Virus record (IMG/VR): IMGVR_UViG_3300007351_000017
Span: 1-49,131 of that record
Length of the DNA: 49,131 nt
Source: a virus
Direction: 5' to 3' (one strand)
Numbering within the stretch: position 1 is the stretch's first letter; the number at the start of each line of letters is the position of its first letter. The position numbers and the translations under genes are program-made. Of this stretch, positions 19,097-49,131 are shown in pieces. Under the pieces are notes generated by a model that was not told the origin of the DNA, did no database searches, and saw only the letters and a list, made by a program, of their open reading frames with translations.

Positions 19097-19312
19097 CTAT
19101 CCCTCGTCGAACATCCGGATGGAGTGTTTGGAGTAGGCTCGAGATTCCTCGATGCGTTCAATGGCCTGAAGGATGTAAACACGCTTACGTGTGTTAGTGG
19201 CAAGGCGCTCGGCCTCTACGTCGGCCTCAGCCTTTGAGTAGTGCTTTTTGGTAGGTGGGCTACCAGACTCGACAAAGAGCATCCAGAAGACTTGATCTAG
19301 GTCGTTGCTCAT
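19097..19312 (-). CDS. hypothetical 71-aa protein
   Basis: ATGA overlap with the polymerase stop. It ends 1 nt before the next start. Confidence 0.55.
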   Translation of the reverse strand: MSNDLDQVFWMLFVESGSPPTKKHYSKAEADVEAERLATNTRKRVYILQAIERIEESRAYSKHSIRMFDEG

Positions 19313-21615
19313 TTGATCTCCTTCATCGAGCCAAGACGCGGACCGGTCTTGAACTCGGCTGGAATCACAAGCATTGCGGTGCCACAAAGAAACTGGCGCT
19401 CCATCTCCTTCTTCATAACTGACGTTACCCAATCGACTTTATCAGGAGGGCACTGAACAAGCATTGAGTCGTGGATTTGCATGACAATGTGGATGCGAGG
19501 ATCGGAGTAGAAACGCCAATAGCAGCGGAGCATCGCCCTGTTTAAGTTGTCTACGACAGTAGACTGGGGTACGTAAGCGATAGCTTCCCTGACAAGGTCG
19601 TCGCCCCATCGACCGAAGAAGCGCCGCTGACGACCAAACGGAGTTCGAATCGTTCGGGTTCCGTGAAGTTCGCGCTCAACTCGTTCGTGCCACTGAGGGA
19701 TTCCGGGGAAACGCTGATAGTAAAGCTCAAGTACTCGTGAGGCTTCAGCTTCACTGAGTCCTGTGATTTGGGCGAACTTCCGTGGTCCAACTTTATAGTT
19801 TCCAGAATGGACACAGCGTTTCCCAATATCATATTCACGAGTACCTTTGCCAACCTCTTGTTCAGGCTTTCCGAATACAAGACTCGCCACGAATGGGTGG
19901 ACTTTTTTTCCACTTTGAAACCTCCCTAGAAGGTTACCATCACCAGACAAACCAGCAACGGCAATCGCCTCGGCCTGGGCGGAGTCTCCCTCGACGAAGA
20001 CGGTTCCGGCGTCGGCTATGATGATGTCACGGACGGCGCCGGCGATTGAATCATCCTCATCGGCGTGAGGCCAGTTTTGTAAATTCATTCCTGTGCCGAA
20101 TACAGTCTTTGAAGACGTTAATCTCCCGGTTTCAGTGAAGTTGAACGTTGTGCGGATACGGCCATCTGAATCAAGTTGCGCGTCAAGATAGGTTGAAATG
20201 ATCTTTCGAGCACGGCGAATTGTACCGATTAAAGGAAGTAACTGCGACGTTGATTTCTTCATTAGTTTGTCGATAGCAAGCTGATCTGTGGTGATGGAGC
20301 CGGTGGCGCGGTTGCGTTGAACGGGTAGCCGGAGCTGCTTGTAAAGCAGGGTTTGCATAGCCTTTGGCGAATTGACGTTTACCTCCCATCCGGCGAGCTC
20401 ATTGAGCTGGGCTTGCGCCGAGGAGATCTTTGATAAGAGCATTGAGCGCAGATCATCCCGCGTAGCCGTGTCGATCAACAAACCGTGGTCTTGAATGTTT
20501 GACAAGACGCGAAGCAGGGGCATTTTGTAAGTTGTGAAGAAGTCCCACAAGCCGAGCTCTTTCATCTCAACGATTTGTTTCTCGGCGATCTCAAACGTAA
20601 CGGCGCAATCCTTGCAGTTGTAAAGATACATTTGTTCAGGCGGGTCAACGCCGGGACGCCAACTTCGTCCTTCGTCTTTGTAATAGGGCTCGCGGGTGTA
20701 GATTGAGGTAAGGAAGTCAAGGGACTTTTTGAATTCAGGGTACAACACATGCGACGCAACCATAGTGTCCCAATACAAGCCCTGCAAGCAATCGCTGCCG
20801 CCAAGAAAAGATAGCTCGAATAGGGCGTTTTGGATGATCTTCTTCACATTAGGGTTTTGGATAAGCTCGGCGCAGAGTCTCCATGCACCTTCCTCTTGAC
20901 TAGATGAAGACCAATATGAGCCCTTGCCTGTGTCAAAAGGAACACATATGGCGAAGTCTGCGGAGTCGGCGAAGCCGATACATGAAATGTGGCCACGCAT
21001 GAGCTCGATATCAACGGCGACTGCTTCGGAGTGGTTCATTCGAGGAAGATGAAACATCACTTCGTCGTAGGTTGGGGAATGCAGTAGCGCCCGCTTTGGT
21101 AAGTCGAGCTTCGGCGACCTTGCCTCAATGAGGCAGCGCTTGAGGTCTTGAATGAAGATCGGACGCCACTCGTACTGGCGAAGGATCATCGCTGGATGAA
21201 TTGAAGGTACAACTTTCAATCCGGCCTTGCCCTCAAGAATTGAACCTCGCCATTTCATAATACCCTTCTTGCTGGTCAAGCCTTCAAGCGCCAAGTTGCC
21301 GAGGGCAATCACAACATTTGGTCTTATCTTAGCCAATAGCGCAATTAGCTCGTCGAGGCATTGGAACGGCGACGAGATTCCAATTTCCTTGAGACGCTTA
21401 AGGTCGTTGTCTGGCGGACGATACGGAAGGATGTTGTGGACAAAGCATTCTCGGCGATCTATTCCGACTTGAAGCAATGCGCTATCAAGAAGCTGTCCCG
21501 CACCACCGACAAAGGGAACACCCGCCGCTTCCTCCTGACGACCTGGCGCCTCGCCAATTATCGCAATGCGAGCGTCAAGTGGCCCTACGCCGTTAACCCG
21601 CTTCATTGCAAGCAT
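19309..21615 (-). CDS. family A DNA polymerase with an N-terminal family-4 uracil-DNA-glycosylase-like domain and a 3'-5' exonuclease
   Basis: GEAPGRQEEAAGVPFVGGAGQLLD and SIHPA (UDG family 4 motifs). AVDIEL (Exo I). Pol A motifs KVGPRKFAQITGLS...YYQRFPGI and QIHDSMLV. The start is ambiguous between 21624, 21615 and 21606; 21615 lies 9 nt after GGAGG. Confidence 0.85.
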   Translation of the reverse strand: MLAMKRVNGVGPLDARIAIIGEAPGRQEEAAGVPFVGGAGQLLDSALLQVGIDRRECFVHNILPYRPPDNDLKRLKEIGISSPFQCLDELIALLAKIRPNVVIALGNLALEGLTSKKGIMKWRGSILEGKAGLKVVPSIHPAMILRQYEWRPIFIQDLKRCLIEARSPKLDLPKRALLHSPTYDEVMFHLPRMNHSEAVAVDIELMRGHISCIGFADSADFAICVPFDTGKGSYWSSSSQEEGAWRLCAELIQNPNVKKIIQNALFELSFLGGSDCLQGLYWDTMVASHVLYPEFKKSLDFLTSIYTREPYYKDEGRSWRPGVDPPEQMYLYNCKDCAVTFEIAEKQIVEMKELGLWDFFTTYKMPLLRVLSNIQDHGLLIDTATRDDLRSMLLSKISSAQAQLNELAGWEVNVNSPKAMQTLLYKQLRLPVQRNRATGSITTDQLAIDKLMKKSTSQLLPLIGTIRRARKIISTYLDAQLDSDGRIRTTFNFTETGRLTSSKTVFGTGMNLQNWPHADEDDSIAGAVRDIIIADAGTVFVEGDSAQAEAIAVAGLSGDGNLLGRFQSGKKVHPFVASLVFGKPEQEVGKGTREYDIGKRCVHSGNYKVGPRKFAQITGLSEAEASRVLELYYQRFPGIPQWHERVERELHGTRTIRTPFGRQRRFFGRWGDDLVREAIAYVPQSTVVDNLNRAMLRCYWRFYSDPRIHIVMQIHDSMLVQCPPDKVDWVTSVMKKEMERQFLCGTAMLVIPAEFKTGPRLGSMKEIK

Positions 21616-21784
21616 GATTAGCATCCTCCAACTCGGCGCCGTTACGCCGGAGATCCTCTTCCAAGGAAGGCAAAGGCTCGAGCCCAAGGATACGCTCAAT
21701 GCGCTCCACGCGGCAATAAAGCTTGCCTAGTGCGGCTCGAGTTTTGTCAACTCGCTTTCGCAGATTCTTCGGTCGAATTTCCAT
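21593..21784 (-). CDS. hypothetical 63-aa protein
   Basis: GGAGG lies 7 nt upstream of the ATG at 21784. It overlaps the neighbouring genes at both ends. Confidence 0.5.
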   Translation of the reverse strand: MEIRPKNLRKRVDKTRAALGKLYCRVERIERILGLEPLPSLEEDLRRNGAELEDANHACNEAG

Positions 21785-23087
21785 TTGACTGCCTCCAGGC
21801 TTCGTCGATGAAGATAGATGCTTTTTCAAAAAGTAAAGGATCTTTTTCACAACCAATCGCTTTGCGATTGAGGCTGACGGCGGCCGCTAGGCTAGCGCCG
21901 CTACCAGCGAAACAATCAAGCACGGTTTCGCCGGGGATGGTGCTGTTCTCGATGATACGTTGGAGCAGAGCGAGGGGCTTTTGAGCGGGGTGGATTTTGA
22001 GGTTGCCGCCAACAGGGGGAACGGCGAAAACGTTGGGGAGCATCTGGGTAAGCGTGCGGTTTGAGTCACCGTCCTTTTGGCAAAACAAGATTGGCTCATA
22101 TGCGGGCGCATAGCGCTGATAGGTATAGGATGTCATGGTTGTGGTACCTTTGGCCCAGATCAAAGGTATTTCGTCGATGGTGAACCAACGGCGAACAAGG
22201 CTACAGATTTCCCCATAAGACCAAATTGCAAAGAACAAATACAAGTACCCTCCCGGAGTAAGGGATCTCTGAAGCTCAGGGAGTATGCTCGTAAGTAGCT
22301 CGATGCAGTTTTCCTCCTTATCCCAAGCTGCATCGTCCCATCTTTCCTCGAGACCTACATTCCAAGGTGGGTCGATGATAGCGCAGTGGATAGAGGCATC
22401 AGGAAGCTCCTTTAGGAAGTCTTGAGCGGCGGTGCATTTGAAAGTCCAAGGGACCTCACGGCGTTCAGGGGCCAACTCGAGCTCCTCGTCAAGTTCAGTT
22501 AAAACTTCCCGCCAGGCGGTTTCCTCTTTCTTTTTGAGCTTCGCCAAAACTGTGCGCTTTTTGTTACCGGAAAGTGTTGGGTCAACCTCAAGGCCCTTTG
22601 AAACTTTGATTGCGTCGGAGACAAAGCCGATGCTTTTGCCAAGGATCTCGGCGACATCCTCGACGCCAAAGCCATCACCACTCTTGTCGCCCTGAAGACG
22701 CCGCCCAAATTTGGCTTGACCAAGCTCATAGATCTTGCGAACGGCGTCGCATTCCTCTTGATAGGACAAGTTACGACGCTTGATGTTCTCCTCAAGTTCA
22801 ATCCATTGCTGATCTATTGGGTCAAGAACCTTGATATCGTTTACGGGAACAGAAGGCCAGCCAAGACTACGGCAAGCCTGAAGGCGACAATATCCGGCTA
22901 TAAGTTGGTCGCCGGAGACAACGATAGGGTGGAGCAAACCGCGCTGTTTGATGCTAATCGCAAGCTCTTTGATATGGTCAGGATCTACCTTTCGGCGTTG
23001 TCGCTCAGGGATGACGACGCCGTCAGTTGGAAGATATGTTATTTCAACCCGTGAAATATCGGGTTCAAAACGCTGCATATCTTTCAC
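21747..23087 (-). CDS. ParB-like nuclease domain fused to an N6-adenine/N4-cytosine DNA methyltransferase
   Basis: N-terminal HIKELAISIKQRGLLHPIVV...LIAGYCRLQACRSLGW (ParB/Srx fold). IIDPPWNV (motif IV) comes before VLDCFAGSGAS (motif I), the beta-class order. GTG at 23087 lies 6 nt after AAGGAG; ATG at 23078 is an alternative. Confidence 0.85.
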   Translation of the reverse strand: MKDMQRFEPDISRVEITYLPTDGVVIPERQRRKVDPDHIKELAISIKQRGLLHPIVVSGDQLIAGYCRLQACRSLGWPSVPVNDIKVLDPIDQQWIELEENIKRRNLSYQEECDAVRKIYELGQAKFGRRLQGDKSGDGFGVEDVAEILGKSIGFVSDAIKVSKGLEVDPTLSGNKKRTVLAKLKKKEETAWREVLTELDEELELAPERREVPWTFKCTAAQDFLKELPDASIHCAIIDPPWNVGLEERWDDAAWDKEENCIELLTSILPELQRSLTPGGYLYLFFAIWSYGEICSLVRRWFTIDEIPLIWAKGTTTMTSYTYQRYAPAYEPILFCQKDGDSNRTLTQMLPNVFAVPPVGGNLKIHPAQKPLALLQRIIENSTIPGETVLDCFAGSGASLAAAVSLNRKAIGCEKDPLLFEKASIFIDEAWRQSNGNSTEESAKAS

Positions 23088-23231
23088 ATTTTGCTCCTTT
23101 CCTTTTGCGGGTGTGGGGTTCCCGCGTTGCTGCAAATCGCCACAAGGTTGTTGTCACGCGCCATTGCTCCTTCCCACCTCAGCCCCACTCTGGGGTGCCG
23201 CCCTCGCTACGCTGTGGGCGGTGCGGCTAGA

Positions 23232-23525: not shown

Positions 23526-23772
23526 GTTTTCCTCCTTTCGTCTCCCACCTGCACCCGGTGGGGGCGGAATTTTGAGCGTTGTTCACCGAGACGCACCCCT
23601 CGGGGTTACACATAGTTAGGGTACGCAGTACCCGGTAGCATTAGGCATCACCTCCTTTTGGTTGCTGGGGGCCGGGCTTGAGTACCGGCTGTAGGTCGTT
23701 GCGCTCACGCCTACGGGGATACAGCGCCGGTCCCCTGCGTGTCCTTCCACGCCGCCCCAGCATGGTCAATCA
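23526..23772 (-). ncRNA. candidate structured RNA / leader element B (multi-hairpin junction closed by an 8-bp stem)
   Basis: 247 nt with no credible ORF. On the transcribed (minus) strand TGCTGGGG (23762-23755) pairs with CCCCAGCA (23670-23663). This encloses four abutting hairpins (23737-52, 23715-35, 23691-714, 23671-89). Three more hairpins lie downstream. Confidence 0.4.
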
Positions 23773-24197: not shown

Positions 24198-24413
24198 TCA
24201 CCCCCTCAATTTCCAAATTATGACATGCTCTATCCCACCATTTTCTGAGATACGCTGGTCCAAATGCCTCTCCGCGCTGAACTCCACCGTGTCCGGTGGA
24301 ATGGCGAAAGAAGGGAACGTGAGGAAGTCCTTTGGGGTAGCATTTGATAAGGTCAATGTCTTGTTCCAATTCCTGGTCTCGATGTAGTTCCGAACTGCGC
24401 CAAGGAGGGTCAT
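24198..24413 (-). CDS. hypothetical 71-aa protein
   Basis: ATGA overlap with the upstream stop, and it ends just before the RBS of the next gene. It competes with the in-frame N-terminal extension of 23773..24468. Confidence 0.45.
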   Translation of the reverse strand: MTLLGAVRNYIETRNWNKTLTLSNATPKDFLTFPSFAIPPDTVEFSAERHLDQRISENGGIEHVIIWKLRG

Positions 24414-24691
24414 GGCGTCTCCTTTTGTTTCTCATCAACGGGCTCATAGGTCGCTTTGAATGTGTCATCTCGGCATGGATAAACCTCGCCCTTCACCCCT
24501 TTGATTATCCAATCTCCTAGATGTGCTTTCATGTCTCCTTCCAGGGTTGGAATGATGATGGGGACGCCTGGTTGAGTGAAGTTGGCTTGGATGCCATCTC
24601 CAACCCAGTCTTCAATAGTTACGTGGGCATCCACGAGTCCATCCCATTGGATAGCTTCAATCACAACGGGTTTCTTTCGGAACTTTGGCAT
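24410..24691 (-). CDS. small conserved phage protein (PGDYG-like C-terminal motif)
   Basis: AAGGAG lies 7 nt upstream of the ATG at 24691. MPKFRKKPVVIEAIQW...HLGDWIIKGVKGEVYPCRDDTFKATYEPV. The upstream part of the track ORF is the structured leader. Confidence 0.7.
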   Translation of the reverse strand: MPKFRKKPVVIEAIQWDGLVDAHVTIEDWVGDGIQANFTQPGVPIIIPTLEGDMKAHLGDWIIKGVKGEVYPCRDDTFKATYEPVDEKQKETP

Positions 24692-24867
24692 CTCTATTCT
24701 CCTTTTGGTCAAGTGTCGCAGGGTGCCGGATTCCAACCGGCTTAGAGCGGGGAGGGTTCGAACCCCCATAACGCCGCCCCGGTTTTCCGGGCTGCTGCCG
24801 TTTCCTCGGCTTCCTAGCAGTCTAGGCACGTCTGCCCGCGTGTTCGCACCACGCCGCCCCTGCGGTG
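24692..24867 (-). ncRNA. candidate structured RNA / leader element A with a tRNA-like T-arm minihelix
   Basis: 176-nt ORF-free gap. Minus-strand closing stem CGCAGGG (24864-24858) / CCCTGCG (24723-24717). Internal GGGGCGG-CGTTAT-GGGGG-TTCGAAC-CCTCC-CCGCTCT (24780-24744). A 5-bp stem with 7-nt loop sits at 24741-24725. Confidence 0.4.
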
Positions 24868-25071
24868 TTAATCCTCCCGAAACGCGGCGTTATACGCTTT
24901 CATCAGCCGCTGCAAGTCCTCTTGCGGACCCTTCACCGTAAAACGACGCTCCAGCCACCCTCCAGACTCCATCCAAGTGATGCTAAGGCCATGGAACTGA
25001 GCTTCCTTTAAAAAGTCTCTAATTGGAGTCCACAGCAGTCGGCCCGCCGTGAATCCGGCTATGGCATTCAT
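24868..25071 (-). CDS. hypothetical 67-aa protein
   Basis: GGAGG lies upstream of the ATG at 25071 (GTG at 25074 is an alternative). Confidence 0.55.
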   Translation of the reverse strand: MNAIAGFTAGRLLWTPIRDFLKEAQFHGLSITWMESGGWLERRFTVKGPQEDLQRLMKAYNAAFRED

Positions 25072-25184
25072 CACACCTCCAGCCTCTGAATGAGGCTGTT
25101 GATACTGCCGTTGATGCTCAGCATGTTTTGGATAAGCATCTCAATTCCTCTCTTGTGATCTTAAAGAGCGCAACCTTCAAATAA

Positions 25185-25206
25185 GGCACCACAGGTGCGT
25201 GGTGCC
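25185..25206 (-). terminator. hairpin downstream of 25219..25611 (possible intrinsic terminator)
   Basis: 8-bp stem GGCACCAC/GTGGTGCC with a 6-nt loop. On the minus strand it is followed by TTATTTGAAGG, a weak U-tract. Confidence 0.4.
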
Positions 25207-32464: not shown

Positions 32465-32571
32465 TAACGCAATATTCATGCCAAAAAATTTTTATTTGGG
32501 CCATTTGGGACAATATATTTTTGTGCCGATGGCCCACGACGCAACGGCGCTTCAGCCGTCGCCATTGGTAA

Positions 32572-32700
32572 TGTCGATTGTAGCAATGTCGCGTTTGGCA
32601 ATGTCGCGGATTGCGATGTCGATTGTCGACTGACCAACGGCGCCCGTTGATTGTCGATTGTCGTCAAGGTGATTGTCGCGCAAGCGATTGTCGATTGTCG
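32572..32700. repeat. iteron-like array: 10 copies of TGTCG, mostly as (G/A)AT(T)GTCG, partly in 7-bp tandem register
   Basis: TGTCG starts at 32572, 32587, 32602, 32617, 32624, 32652, 32659, 32674, 32689 and 32696. The 17-mer tgtcgattgtcgactga occurs twice. Confidence 0.8.
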
Positions 32701-33000
32701 ACTGAACCGCCGAGCGGCGTGGTCGCATGATCCCCGTGGGATGGTCGGCGCGCCGACAGCACCATGGGCACCGCGGGGCGACGGCGCTTGGGCAGCTTGG
32801 ACACCCCCACACGGGGCGCTGGCGCGCGCGCAACGAGGGTTATCAAATCGCATAACAGTTGACCCTTTGTGCCATCACCTGACGCCTTTGACGCTTCAGC
32901 GCAACTTCGCCGCTTCAGCGCAATTGGTGTTGGATTGAACGGCGCTCTGGGCAACGGGCGTCGGGGGATTTTTCACGGCGCCTAGATAGGCGCTATCGCA

Positions 33001-48300: not shown

Positions 48301-49131
48301 ATGAAGAAACTTTGGGTTACTTTGCTGATCTTGCTCTTTGCAGCGTCAGCGTCGGCGATTGAGCCTGGGCTTATACAGGTATGTGAAGAAGACGGAGCGC
48401 CGTGTGGATGGTTTGCAAAGCTAAAAGTTACAAATGGAACGCTTACGGATAATGCTGATAGCACAGTGTCTGTGACTACACAGGCAGCAGACGCCGACCT
48501 AACGTCCATCGCCGGAGGGGTGACCGGCATTGTCAAGGGCCTTGGCAACGGCAGTGGCTTTACGGCTGCGGCTGCCGGGACGGATTACGTCGGTGGTGCT
48601 GCCTCCTCCACGGACAACGAGCTTGTGCGGTATGACTCGACCTCGGGGAAGGTGATACAGACGTCGTCGGTCATCCTTGACGACACATACAAGCTCTACC
48701 GCAACAGCACGACGGATGCGCACACCCTTTGTCTGCAAGGCTATCACGGGGACAGCACGGCGTTTGTTGACGCCCTCTGTATCGAGAACGAAACGGCGGC
48801 ATTAGGTAAAGTGAAGGTGACAGTAGGCGCCAACGCCACCTTTGAGACTGGCACCATACTCGTTGCTTCCGACTCCATCCACGCCCAGACGGGGACGACA
48901 GCAGACGATGATATGTATCTCGCTGCTTACGACGTGGACGGGGCCGCATATCGAAACCTCATTACCCTGAAGGCCAGCAACACCCCTCAACTCCTGCTCA
49001 AGTCAACAGCCGTGATGAACCTCGGCGGTGTGGGGGGGACGAACAACGAAGACTTAACACTCGACTTTGAGACCACGGCGAATACTGTCGCGGTTGCCAG
49101 CACCACGGGAGTAACGGCTATTTCCCTTGGC
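48301..49131 (+). CDS. 5' part of the junction-spanning secreted tail-fibre-like protein
   Basis: AAGGAG RBS. Signal-peptide-like MKKLWVTLLILLFAASASA and fibre-type motif TDNELVRYDSTSGKVIQTSSVILDD. No stop codon before the window end; it continues at base 100. Confidence 0.8.
   Translation, partial: MKKLWVTLLILLFAASASAIEPGLIQVCEEDGAPCGWFAKLKVTNGTLTDNADSTVSVTTQAADADLTSIAGGVTGIVKGLGNGSGFTAAAAGTDYVGGAASSTDNELVRYDSTSGKVIQTSSVILDDTYKLYRNSTTDAHTLCLQGYHGDSTAFVDALCIENETAALGKVKVTVGANATFETGTILVASDSIHAQTGTTADDDMYLAAYDVDGAAYRNLITLKASNTPQLLLKSTAVMNLGGVGGTNNEDLTLDFETTANTVAVASTTGVTAISLG
49033..49131. repeat. terminal direct repeat, copy 2
   Basis: Identical to bases 1-99. Confidence 0.95.

Follow-up and report, generated by a model that had tools for sequence, protein, structure and literature searches.

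Two members of a conserved, phage-enriched family of tRNA-like structured RNAs in the early operon of an environmental phage

Introduction

The minus strand of IMG/VR virus record IMGVR_UViG_3300007351_000017 contains an intergenic sequence that resembles part of a tRNA but is not a normal tRNA gene, and the question is what this sequence is. The entire record (positions 1 to 49,131; 49,131 nt) was analysed and is referred to as the window. An earlier note on the window described at 24717-24864 a tRNA-like minihelix, an anticodon-arm-like hairpin and an arrangement resembling boxA and boxB, and considered a tRNA mimic, an attP-type tRNA fragment and an antitermination site as possible identities. 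The analysis described here indicates that the sequence at 24718-24863, termed element A, and a second sequence at 23664-23761 on the same strand, termed element B, represent a family of structured RNAs that is found mainly in phages and retains a tRNA-like frame around an insert that differs from member to member.

Elements A and B belong to a family of structured RNAs

A family member begins with the 5' strand of the closing stem P1, which is followed by a 2-nt linker, a D-arm-like hairpin P2, a hypervariable insert and a T-arm-like hairpin (T hairpin) stacked directly on the 3' strand of P1. Covariance model R1, which was constructed from 22 members, none of them from the window, and whose E-values are rough, gives exactly two matches in the window, to B with 68.4 bits (E=5e-11) and to A with 35.5 bits (E=7e-5). 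With the filters off, nothing else in the early region scores above 9 bits, and the opposite strand of B scores 8 bits. A and B are members of a conserved, strand-specific and phage-enriched structured RNA family. Their features are as follows.

24718-24863, minus: element A, a whole family member of 146 nt, intergenic (full-length match to R1, unchanged with the filters off)
C24864-G24717, minus: optional eighth pair of P1 of A
24857-24863, minus: 5' strand of P1 of A, GCAGGGG, pairing with 24718-24724, the innermost G opposing A24724 (R1 alignment and minimum-free-energy fold)
24855-24856, minus: linker of A, CG (R1 alignment)
24838-24854, minus: P2 of A, the D-arm-like hairpin GCGUG-GUGCGAA-CACGC (R1 alignment; 5/5 P2 pairs covary in relatives chosen regardless of P2)
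24742-24837, minus: variable insert of A, 96 nt, with predicted hairpins at 24824-24837, 24792-24820 and 24778-24791 and a nested minihelix (minimum-free-energy fold)
24743-24780, minus: minihelix of A, GGGGCGG / CGUUAU / GGGGG-UUCGAAC-CCUCC / CCGCUCU / A, an insert specific to A
24725-24741, minus: T-arm-like hairpin of A, GCCGG-UUGGAAU-CCGGC (aligned by R1 to the T hairpin of the family, the stem of which covaries)
24718-24724, minus: 3' strand of P1 of A, ACCCUGC (R1 alignment and minimum-free-energy fold)
23664-23761, minus: element B, a paralog of A (match to R1; fold computed)
U23762-A23663, minus: eighth pair of P1 of B, followed by A-CCA at 23659-23662, which resembles a mature tRNA 3' end
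23737-23752, minus: P2 of B, GCGUG-GAAGGA-CACGC (R1 alignment)
23671-23689, minus: T-arm-like hairpin of B, GCCGG-UACUCAAGC-CCGGC (R1 alignment; the identical hairpin occurs in contig L140)

The two elements have in common the first hairpin, GCGUG-loop-CACGC, and the last hairpin, GCCGG-loop-CCGGC, which abuts the 3' strand of the closing stem. Their closing stems differ by compensatory changes (GCAGGG/CCCUGC in A and GCUGGGG/CCCCAGC in B). The 5' edge of A, GATTAACACCGCAGGGGCGGCGTGG, recurs 1.1 kb downstream as GATTGACCATGCTGGGGCGGCGTGG in B (repeat D15), and GGGGCGGCG occurs exactly three times in the window, at 24852-24860, 24772-24780 and 23750-23758. The intergenic RNA containing A (24692-24870) folds with -75.1 kcal/mol (z = -2.56), and the intergenic RNA at B also folds as a closed multi-branch structure. 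On the 3' side of B, a strong Shine-Dalgarno (SD) sequence, GGAGG (23651-23655, minus), precedes a mini open reading frame (ORF) of 10 codons, MPNATGYCVP (23616-23648), and about 90 nt more separate it from a 97-aa gene. The 138-nt leader at B (23526-23663, minus) is of ordinary stability (z=0.12).

The members were collected by two scans of IMG/VR. The first scan, with the 5' pattern GGGGCGGCGTGG-N4-10-CACGC, gives at least 118 stretches, and 23 distinct sequences with the same closing stem and last hairpin are found among the matches listed. When 185,579 bacterial and archaeal genomes are scanned with this pattern, at least 120 stretches are found, with two dubious candidates among the matches listed. 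The second scan is blind to the 5' half of the element, because the 3' motif GGTATCAAKCCCNGCCCC was used. It gives 19 further members that were accepted after a structural filter, again among the matches listed, and P2 of these members is altered by paired substitutions (GCACG/CGUGC, AUGCG/CGCAU, GUACG/CGUAC and GCGCC/GGCGC). A loose descriptor search in Python was swamped by false positives, and the covariance model was used instead. The family is absent from Rfam 15, which was searched with the window and the related loci. A search of 8 million full texts for the conserved sequence words gives no relevant paper, its single match being an unrelated DNA-detection study. Topic searches of the literature give no description of the family, which may be listed without a name among 10,006 candidate RNAs of viruses catalogued in bulk (PMC10690425).

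Architecture and covariation of the family

P1 consists of 7 to 19 bp, and its inner pairs are usually GGG/CCC. The linker is 2 nt long and is CG in 51/57 members. P2 consists of 5 bp and is capped by loops such as GAAGGA, GAUGGA, GUGGGA and GAAAGCAGA. The insert varies from 45 to 136 nt (median 79 in the 57 members) and contains one to five hairpins, and neither its sequence nor its length is conserved. An A precedes the T hairpin in 54 of the 57 members, and the four bases preceding this hairpin vary across them. The T stem is always 5 bp long, with 0 nt between it and the 3' strand of P1. The T loop is of type I (UAUCAAGC), type II (UUCGAAU or UUCAAAU, in about 15% of the members) or type III (AGUAGCGC). 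The flanks on the 3' side of P1 are rich in A and C and unstructured.

When the 57 members are aligned to the model, 13 of the 17 pairs change on both sides and 98.0% of the cells pair, a result that 0 of 500 shuffles reaches. These counts lean towards structure, because the alignment was fitted to the model and because the first member set had been filtered for pairing in P1 and in the T stem. In the set chosen blind to P2, each of the five P2 pairs shows changes on both sides; 95.6% of the cells are paired, as compared to 3-63% in slid controls. Covariation supports all three helices.

The loop types are associated with each other. A T loop of type I is accompanied by a P2 loop of the GA type in 38/39 members, and that of type II by a P2 loop of the GU type in 7/8. 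This pairing of loop types fits a contact between the P2 and T loops like that at the elbow of tRNA, as judged from the sequences. Element A has UUGGAAU with GUGCGAA, whereas its relatives have UUCGAAU with GUGGGA; likewise, locus L183 has AGUAACGC with ..GUAG.., whereas its relatives have AGUAGCGC with ..GCAG... In both of these single cases, it looks as if one tertiary pair had been swapped.

A long extension of P1, CCATCACATCA/TGATGTGATGG, is identical in L147, L155, L352 and L358, and in part in Acidovorax phage AP1, although the inserts differ. This common extension across unlike inserts suggests either modular exchange or an additional function of the extended stem. The extended closing stem, (C)CATCACATCA...TGATGTGATG(G), is seen in five contigs with unlike inserts, namely L147, L155, L352, L358 and L361 (AP1). 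L147 contains in addition a Burkholderiales-2 RNA (RF02917, 84 bits) at 2669-2742, about 1.1 kb from the family member. A betaproteobacterial host of the L147 phage is hinted at, because RF02917 is on the same contig.

The minihelix is an insert specific to element A

The sequence of the minus strand at 24780-24743, GGGGCGG-CGTTAT-GGGGG-TTCGAAC-CCTCC-CCGCTCT-A, is exactly as read in the earlier note, and its pairing, as read from the sequence, also agrees, with one G-U pair in the T-stem and two in the 7-bp acceptor-like stem. However, the proposal that this 38-nt minihelix is the unit does not hold: the unit is the whole 146-nt element, and the minihelix sits in the non-conserved insert. The hairpin GCCGG-TTGGAAT-CCGGC, located at 24741-24725 after two A's, has the sequence reported, but it is not an anticodon-arm-like hairpin. 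It is the T-arm equivalent of the family and stacks on the closing stem; its aligned counterparts in the relatives are GCCGG-UUCGAAU-CCGGC and GCCGG-UAUCAAGC-CCGGC. No conserved arm with a 5-bp stem and a 7-nt loop, as expected for an anticodon arm, follows P2 in the family.

The view that the locus is tRNA-like without being a normal tRNA gene is borne out. ARAGORN detects neither a tRNA nor a tmRNA in the whole window, and Rfam 15 gives nothing in the window at gathering scores. At a loose threshold, the tRNA model (RF00005) gives 14.4 bits, against a cutoff of 29, with only the acceptor and T arm aligned. The YrlA/Y RNA model (RF02553) has no match in the window either at the gathering score or at E<=10, and the models of the tmRNA clan have none even at E<=10, so that the YrlA and tmRNA identities fall. 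A tRNA, a tmRNA and a known RNA family were also rejected as identities by negative ARAGORN and Rfam results for the window together with 13-22 related loci. Both programs had been named in the earlier note as a check, and no tRNA, tmRNA or other named RNA is found by them.

The window contains five T-arm-like hairpins, as compared to 2.0 +/- 1.4 in genomes simulated with a first-order Markov model, and a full T arm with a 7-bp minihelix occurs in 5/200 simulated genomes. Such a minihelix is uncommon, though not extremely so. Of the 54 distinct members that were checked, only A has a minihelix with an inner canonical T arm (0/53 of the others). The pattern GGGGCGGCGTN{2,9}GGGTTCRAA gives one match in IMG/VR among the matches listed, and this match is read as chance in apparently coding DNA, so that no true relative of the minihelix is found among these matches. 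The first ten bases of the minihelix, GGGGCGGCGT, repeat the 5' core of the family. Because this core is found only three times in the genome, a duplication is our best guess for its origin, and the minihelix is probably an extra branch of A, in which a partial internal copy of the 5' core has been joined to a T arm.

Distribution and genomic context

Among loci carrying the 5' motif, R1 matches 21/100 viral loci but only 1/100 bacterial loci, the latter in a metagenome-assembled genome of Pirellulales. R1 matches one contig in phage DNA (about 0.7 Mb) that had been collected irrespective of the element, and no match to the type-I consensus is found in 5,426 E. coli genomes. Unannotated copies are present in the cultured phages Caulobacter DMCA, Acidovorax AP1, Komagataeibacter phiKX1, Alcaligenes vB_Af_QDWS595 (N4-like) and Pseudanabaena Pan3. 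The phiKX1 copy is confirmed by its sequence and the covariance model, and that of Komagataeibacter phage phiKX2 is a BLAST match only.

The element lies mostly between codirectional ORFs and sometimes beside tRNA genes. A stop codon of the upstream frame is located 4-17 nt before P1 in 25/57 members, and an SD sequence with a start codon follows P1 at 6-29 nt in 17/57. The copy of DMCA (L360, PQ480021.1, 25554-25686) lies in an unannotated gap of 546 nt between annotated transposase and integrase genes and is followed by a hairpin with a predicted stability of -32.6 kcal/mol. In phiKX1, the element is located 118 nt after a tRNA-Met gene and 14 nt before a hairpin of -26 kcal/mol, which is followed by U5. 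A simple terminator scan makes no call on the 3' side of either the phiKX1 or the DMCA copy, though folding gives strong hairpins. In vB_Af_QDWS595, three tRNA genes are located about 1 kb downstream of the element.

Two copies per locus are found in L091 (5232-5544), L106 (1705-2034), L090 (5696-6146), L140 (1130-2559) and L352 (6804-7282), as well as in the window. Paired copies are separated by 17 nt (L091) to 1.2 kb. The copies of L106 and those of L090 share their flanks and P1 within each genome, but have different inserts. The two copies of L090 precede a tRNA-Glu gene on the same strand by 116 nt. No flanking protein is conserved between loci; the neighbours sampled are RecT, NinB and proteins of no known kind.

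The phage genome and the operon around elements A and B

The window has an exact 99-nt direct repeat at its ends (1-99 and 49033-49131) and is therefore the complete genome of a phage (about 49 kb), which was assembled as a circle or ends in short direct terminal repeats. According to domain scans, the plus strand carries the late genes, including those for an SU10-type portal and adaptor and a capsid protein, and the minus strand carries a long early and replication operon for an AAA_24 ATPase, a PD-(D/E)XK nuclease, a ParB-methylase fusion, a fusion of uracil-DNA glycosylase with PolA and a DUF3987 protein. PolA leads to no close relative of this phage among the IMG/VR matches listed, which show only 31-34% identity. 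Element A is located inside this early operon between two codirectional ORFs, the relevant signals of which are as follows.

24868-24870, minus: TAA stop codon of the upstream ORF of 67-68 aa (24868-25074), 4 nt before P1 of A
24689-24704, minus: SD sequence AAGGAGA and ATG (24691-24689) of the downstream 93-aa ORF, which starts 26 nt past A

A search of 5.8 billion proteins with the upstream 67-aa protein matches only this protein itself. The downstream 93-aa protein (24410-24691, minus) has no Pfam domain, but has hundreds of relatives with 46-59% identity in phage and metagenome contigs, and represents a widespread, uncharacterised family of phage proteins. It is not linked to the element: of the roughly 138 loci searched, the covariance model matches a single distinct contig (L027 = L405). 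Among the 40 ORFs of the window that were scanned, no integrase, reverse transcriptase or RNA-handling enzyme is found, nor is a Ro/TROVE protein, Rsr or RtcB.

The two fusions of the replication module (21747-23135 and 19309-21699, minus) consist of ParB-N with an N6/N4 DNA methylase and of a family-A DNA polymerase with an N-terminal uracil-DNA-glycosylase-like domain, respectively. Upstream of A on the minus strand, the stop codon of a 22-codon ORF (25139-25071) overlaps the start of the 67-aa ORF. A short hairpin that resembles a terminator, GCACCTGTGGTGC, with CTTATTT after it, is present at 25198-25186 (minus; within 25071-25198), and a further boxA-like octamer, CGCTCTTT, comes after it at 25163-25170. 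A cluster of direct repeats based on TGTCGATTGTCGA(C), of repeat families D7 and D19, is located at 32558-32705 near the start of the minus-strand operon, close to its divergence from the late genes (around 33330). This cluster is a candidate operator or iteron array, as judged from its sequence.

Comparison with known RNAs

Of the identities considered in the earlier note, a tRNA mimic is the best, and the element is most like such a mimic, yet it is a member of no tested family. Like a tRNA, especially one of class II or the tRNA-Sec type (RF00005, RF01852), it has a closing stem and a 5-bp T-like stem without a nucleotide between them, a 2-nt linker to a hairpin at the D position with a short, GG-containing loop, the UUCGAAU loop in some members, and copies clustered with real tRNA genes. 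Unlike a tRNA, it has an insert of 45-136 nt and variable architecture instead of an anticodon arm, no conserved discriminator or CCA, a P1 of up to 19 bp and, in most members, a non-canonical T loop; its Rfam scores are far under the cutoffs and ARAGORN is negative. The tRNA-like domain of tmRNA (RF00023 and two-piece forms) is similar in that the ends pair as an acceptor-like stem, a T arm stands on the 3' side and the place of the anticodon arm is taken by foreign sequence. However, family members are much shorter (95-190 nt) and have a true D-like stem, and neither a tag reading frame nor pseudoknots are seen in the family, nor a G3:U70/ACCA end as a rule.

YrlA and other bacterial Y RNAs (RF02553) resemble the family as non-coding tRNA mimics without an anticodon loop that occur in phages too (PMC4201824). 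YrlA-type RNAs are proposed substrates of tRNA enzymes (PMC4201824). The tRNA-like module of YrlA is capped and its ends form the Ro-binding stem (partly after PMC4201824), whereas the ends of the family form the acceptor-like stem. The family has no match to the Rfam model, and no Ro gene is seen nearby.

The C4 antisense RNA of P1 and P7, the CI RNA of P4 and species 1 and 2 of T4 are small stable phage RNAs that are cut by host tRNA-processing enzymes, and variable loops of the C4 and CI RNAs confer phage-specific targeting. Unlike these RNAs, the family has another architecture, no sequence or Rfam similarity to them (C4, RF01695, is unmatched) and no antisense target in this genome.

The arrays of non-coding RNAs associated with the UG27 reverse transcriptase of phages are similar in that a conserved scaffold surrounds a highly variable central hairpin, the units are about 150 nt long and occur in multi-unit arrays, and the RNAs are phage-borne without evident complementarity to known targets (bioRxiv 10.64898/2026.09.22.753630). 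Each UG27 unit is, however, one long interrupted hairpin with AUCN7UANAG and UUYA motifs, and the units always adjoin the reverse transcriptase and two accessory ORFs (bioRxiv 10.64898/2026.09.22.753630). The neighbours of the element are not conserved, and no reverse transcriptase domain is found among the ORFs scanned.

Possible function of the family

The reading that we favour, though only tentatively and at somewhat less than even chance, is that host tRNA-processing enzymes excise from the phage transcript a stable, tRNA-shaped RNA with a phage-specific variable domain. The frame of the family has the geometry of tRNA, with 7 + 5 stacked bp, a 2-nt linker and a hairpin at the D position. 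The continuity of P1 and the T hairpin corresponds to the coaxial stack of the acceptor and T arms, and the insert stands where a tRNA has the anticodon and variable arms. The genomic habits of the element are those of phage tRNA genes, and among the Rfam models it comes closest, though below threshold, to tRNA-Sec (25 bits, E=0.004, on L120) and tRNA. The RNA would fold as an L like that of tRNA, with its P2 and T loops touching at the elbow, and the maturation enzymes of the host would recognise this frame inside polycistronic transcripts of the phage. RNase P may cut the 5' side, and RNase E, RNase Z or exonucleases the 3' side. This cutting would part the flanking cistrons and free a stable, tRNA-shaped small RNA, the variable domain of which may be the phage-specific working part, acting as a decoy, a sponge or a base-pairing RNA. 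The element would act without a dedicated partner gene, because flanking proteins are not conserved between loci.

Several points weigh against excision. We infer every one of the processing steps. P1 reaches 19 bp in some members, and a leader paired to its trailer is a poor substrate of RNase P. As a substrate of this enzyme, the element appears to fit in geometry only (7 + 5 bp of stacked helices and a T-like loop), and the long P1 extensions speak against it. No conserved discriminator base or CCA is found in the family. The T loops of most members are non-canonical (UAUCAAGC, AGUAGCGC) and may not be read as tRNA elbows. The association of the loop types could stem from shared ancestry instead of a tertiary contact. 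The cell counts of G-U (13) and A-C (10) alone do not fix the strand. Finally, the antisense matches of A and B within the phage genome are only 10-12 nt long, as expected by chance.

It is unlikely, but the strongest of the alternatives to excision, that the element is never excised and acts in cis between cistrons, as a block to 3' exonucleases, a 5' stabiliser or a device for translational coupling. The tight sandwich of the element between the upstream stop codon (25/57 members) and the downstream SD sequence and start codon (17/57), which is also seen for both copies in the window, agrees with such a role, as do the A/C-rich, unstructured 3' flanks. Any cis role must be generic, because the flanking genes are unrelated. 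However, a conserved frame of three helices, with loops kept across phages of Alphaproteobacteria, Betaproteobacteria and cyanobacteria, is more than a simple stabiliser requires. In addition, some copies are located beside tRNA genes and before a terminator-like hairpin instead of between ORFs, and the tandem copies of L091 are only 17 nt apart.

It is unlikely that the RNA is a tRNA decoy, in which the frame titrates a host factor reading the acceptor, T arm or elbow (such as a defence nuclease directed at tRNAs, an enzyme for processing or modification, or a protein like Ro) and the insert is a spacer. Anticodon loops are what the best-known tRNA-directed defences cut, and the family has none; that most members have non-canonical T loops speaks against close mimicry; and no gene for Ro, Rsr, RtcB or another RNA-handling protein is found among the ORFs scanned. 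A tRNA-like frame without an anticodon arm is nevertheless what a decoy would look like, and the phage specificity of the family, the presence of several copies per genome and their placement among early, recombination and accessory genes (RecT, NinB, Xre) are consistent with it. The tRNA-like Y RNAs of the YrlA type in bacteria and phages provide a precedent (PMC4201824).

A mobile or recombination module at the level of DNA, in which P1 represents terminal inverted repeats or the fold forms in single-stranded DNA, is improbable. P1 does resemble inverted repeats of up to 19 bp, its extension CCATCACATCA/TGATGTGATGG is common to contigs with unlike inserts, copies within a genome share their flanks (including repeat D15), the G-U and A-C cell counts are similar, and the copy of DMCA has a transposase on one side and an integrase on the other. 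However, a folded single strand is indicated, because three separate helices covary and the loop sequences are conserved. The model strongly prefers one strand (68 bits, as compared to 8 bits for the other), which is also the strand that the flanking ORFs and nearby tRNA genes use, and no recombinase or transposase recurs beside the element.

The proposal of the earlier note that A is a lambda-type nut site, or another nut- or put-like RNA for processive antitermination, is very improbable. The octamer CGCTCTAA at 24742-24749 is one mismatch from boxA (CGCUCUAA matches it at 7/8 positions), a hairpin follows it directly in the early operon as in a lambda nut site, two copies of the element are present in this one long operon, and a terminator-like hairpin follows the element in phiKX1. 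However, the boxA match of A is due to chance, because such octamers occur in the window at the frequency expected (30 with at most one mismatch, versus 33 +/- 6) and because neither B nor the rest of the family, in which the bases 5' of the hairpin are not conserved, contains it. The putative boxB is the T-like hairpin of the family, a part of a larger conserved fold, with a loop of 7-9 nt, whereas boxB of lambda has a GNRA-like pentaloop. The family is also found outside early operons, beside tRNA genes.

Least probable, and hardly to be entertained, is a functionless, decayed tRNA gene or attP-type tRNA fragment, which the canonical T arm of the inner minihelix, the alignment of the acceptor and T arm to the tRNA model and a possible descent of the family from class II or tRNA-Sec-like tRNAs would suit, but which is contradicted by the presence of both halves of the structure, by the lack of an integrase among the ORFs scanned, by the lack of a match in the E. 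coli genomes and by purifying selection on the structure, which is indicated because compensatory changes keep the frame in 57 members from very different phages.

Implications

An extension of the excision reading, which we regard as doubtful, is that phages of many lineages possess a natural tRNA scaffold, from which the maturation machinery of the host would cut out and stabilise hypervariable cargo RNAs. These RNAs would be phage-specific effectors, such as anti-host or anti-defence decoys or guides, with the inserts swapped and the chassis kept. Synthetic tRNA scaffolds would be a parallel, as would the tRNA-miRNA units of murine gammaherpesvirus 68.

If the element is only an intercistronic stabiliser, its annotation is still useful, but its interest is modest. 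If excision is correct, the family would be a common, conserved RNA of environmental phages that has so far had no name, and its covariance model could be used as it stands to annotate phage genomes and to mask false ORFs. The family would also provide a natural and evolvable scaffold for the expression of stable RNAs in bacteria. The cultured phages that carry the element make the role of the variable domain directly testable. For phage biology, the family would represent a new form of tRNA mimicry and, if the natural-scaffold proposal is true, a new class of phage small RNAs.

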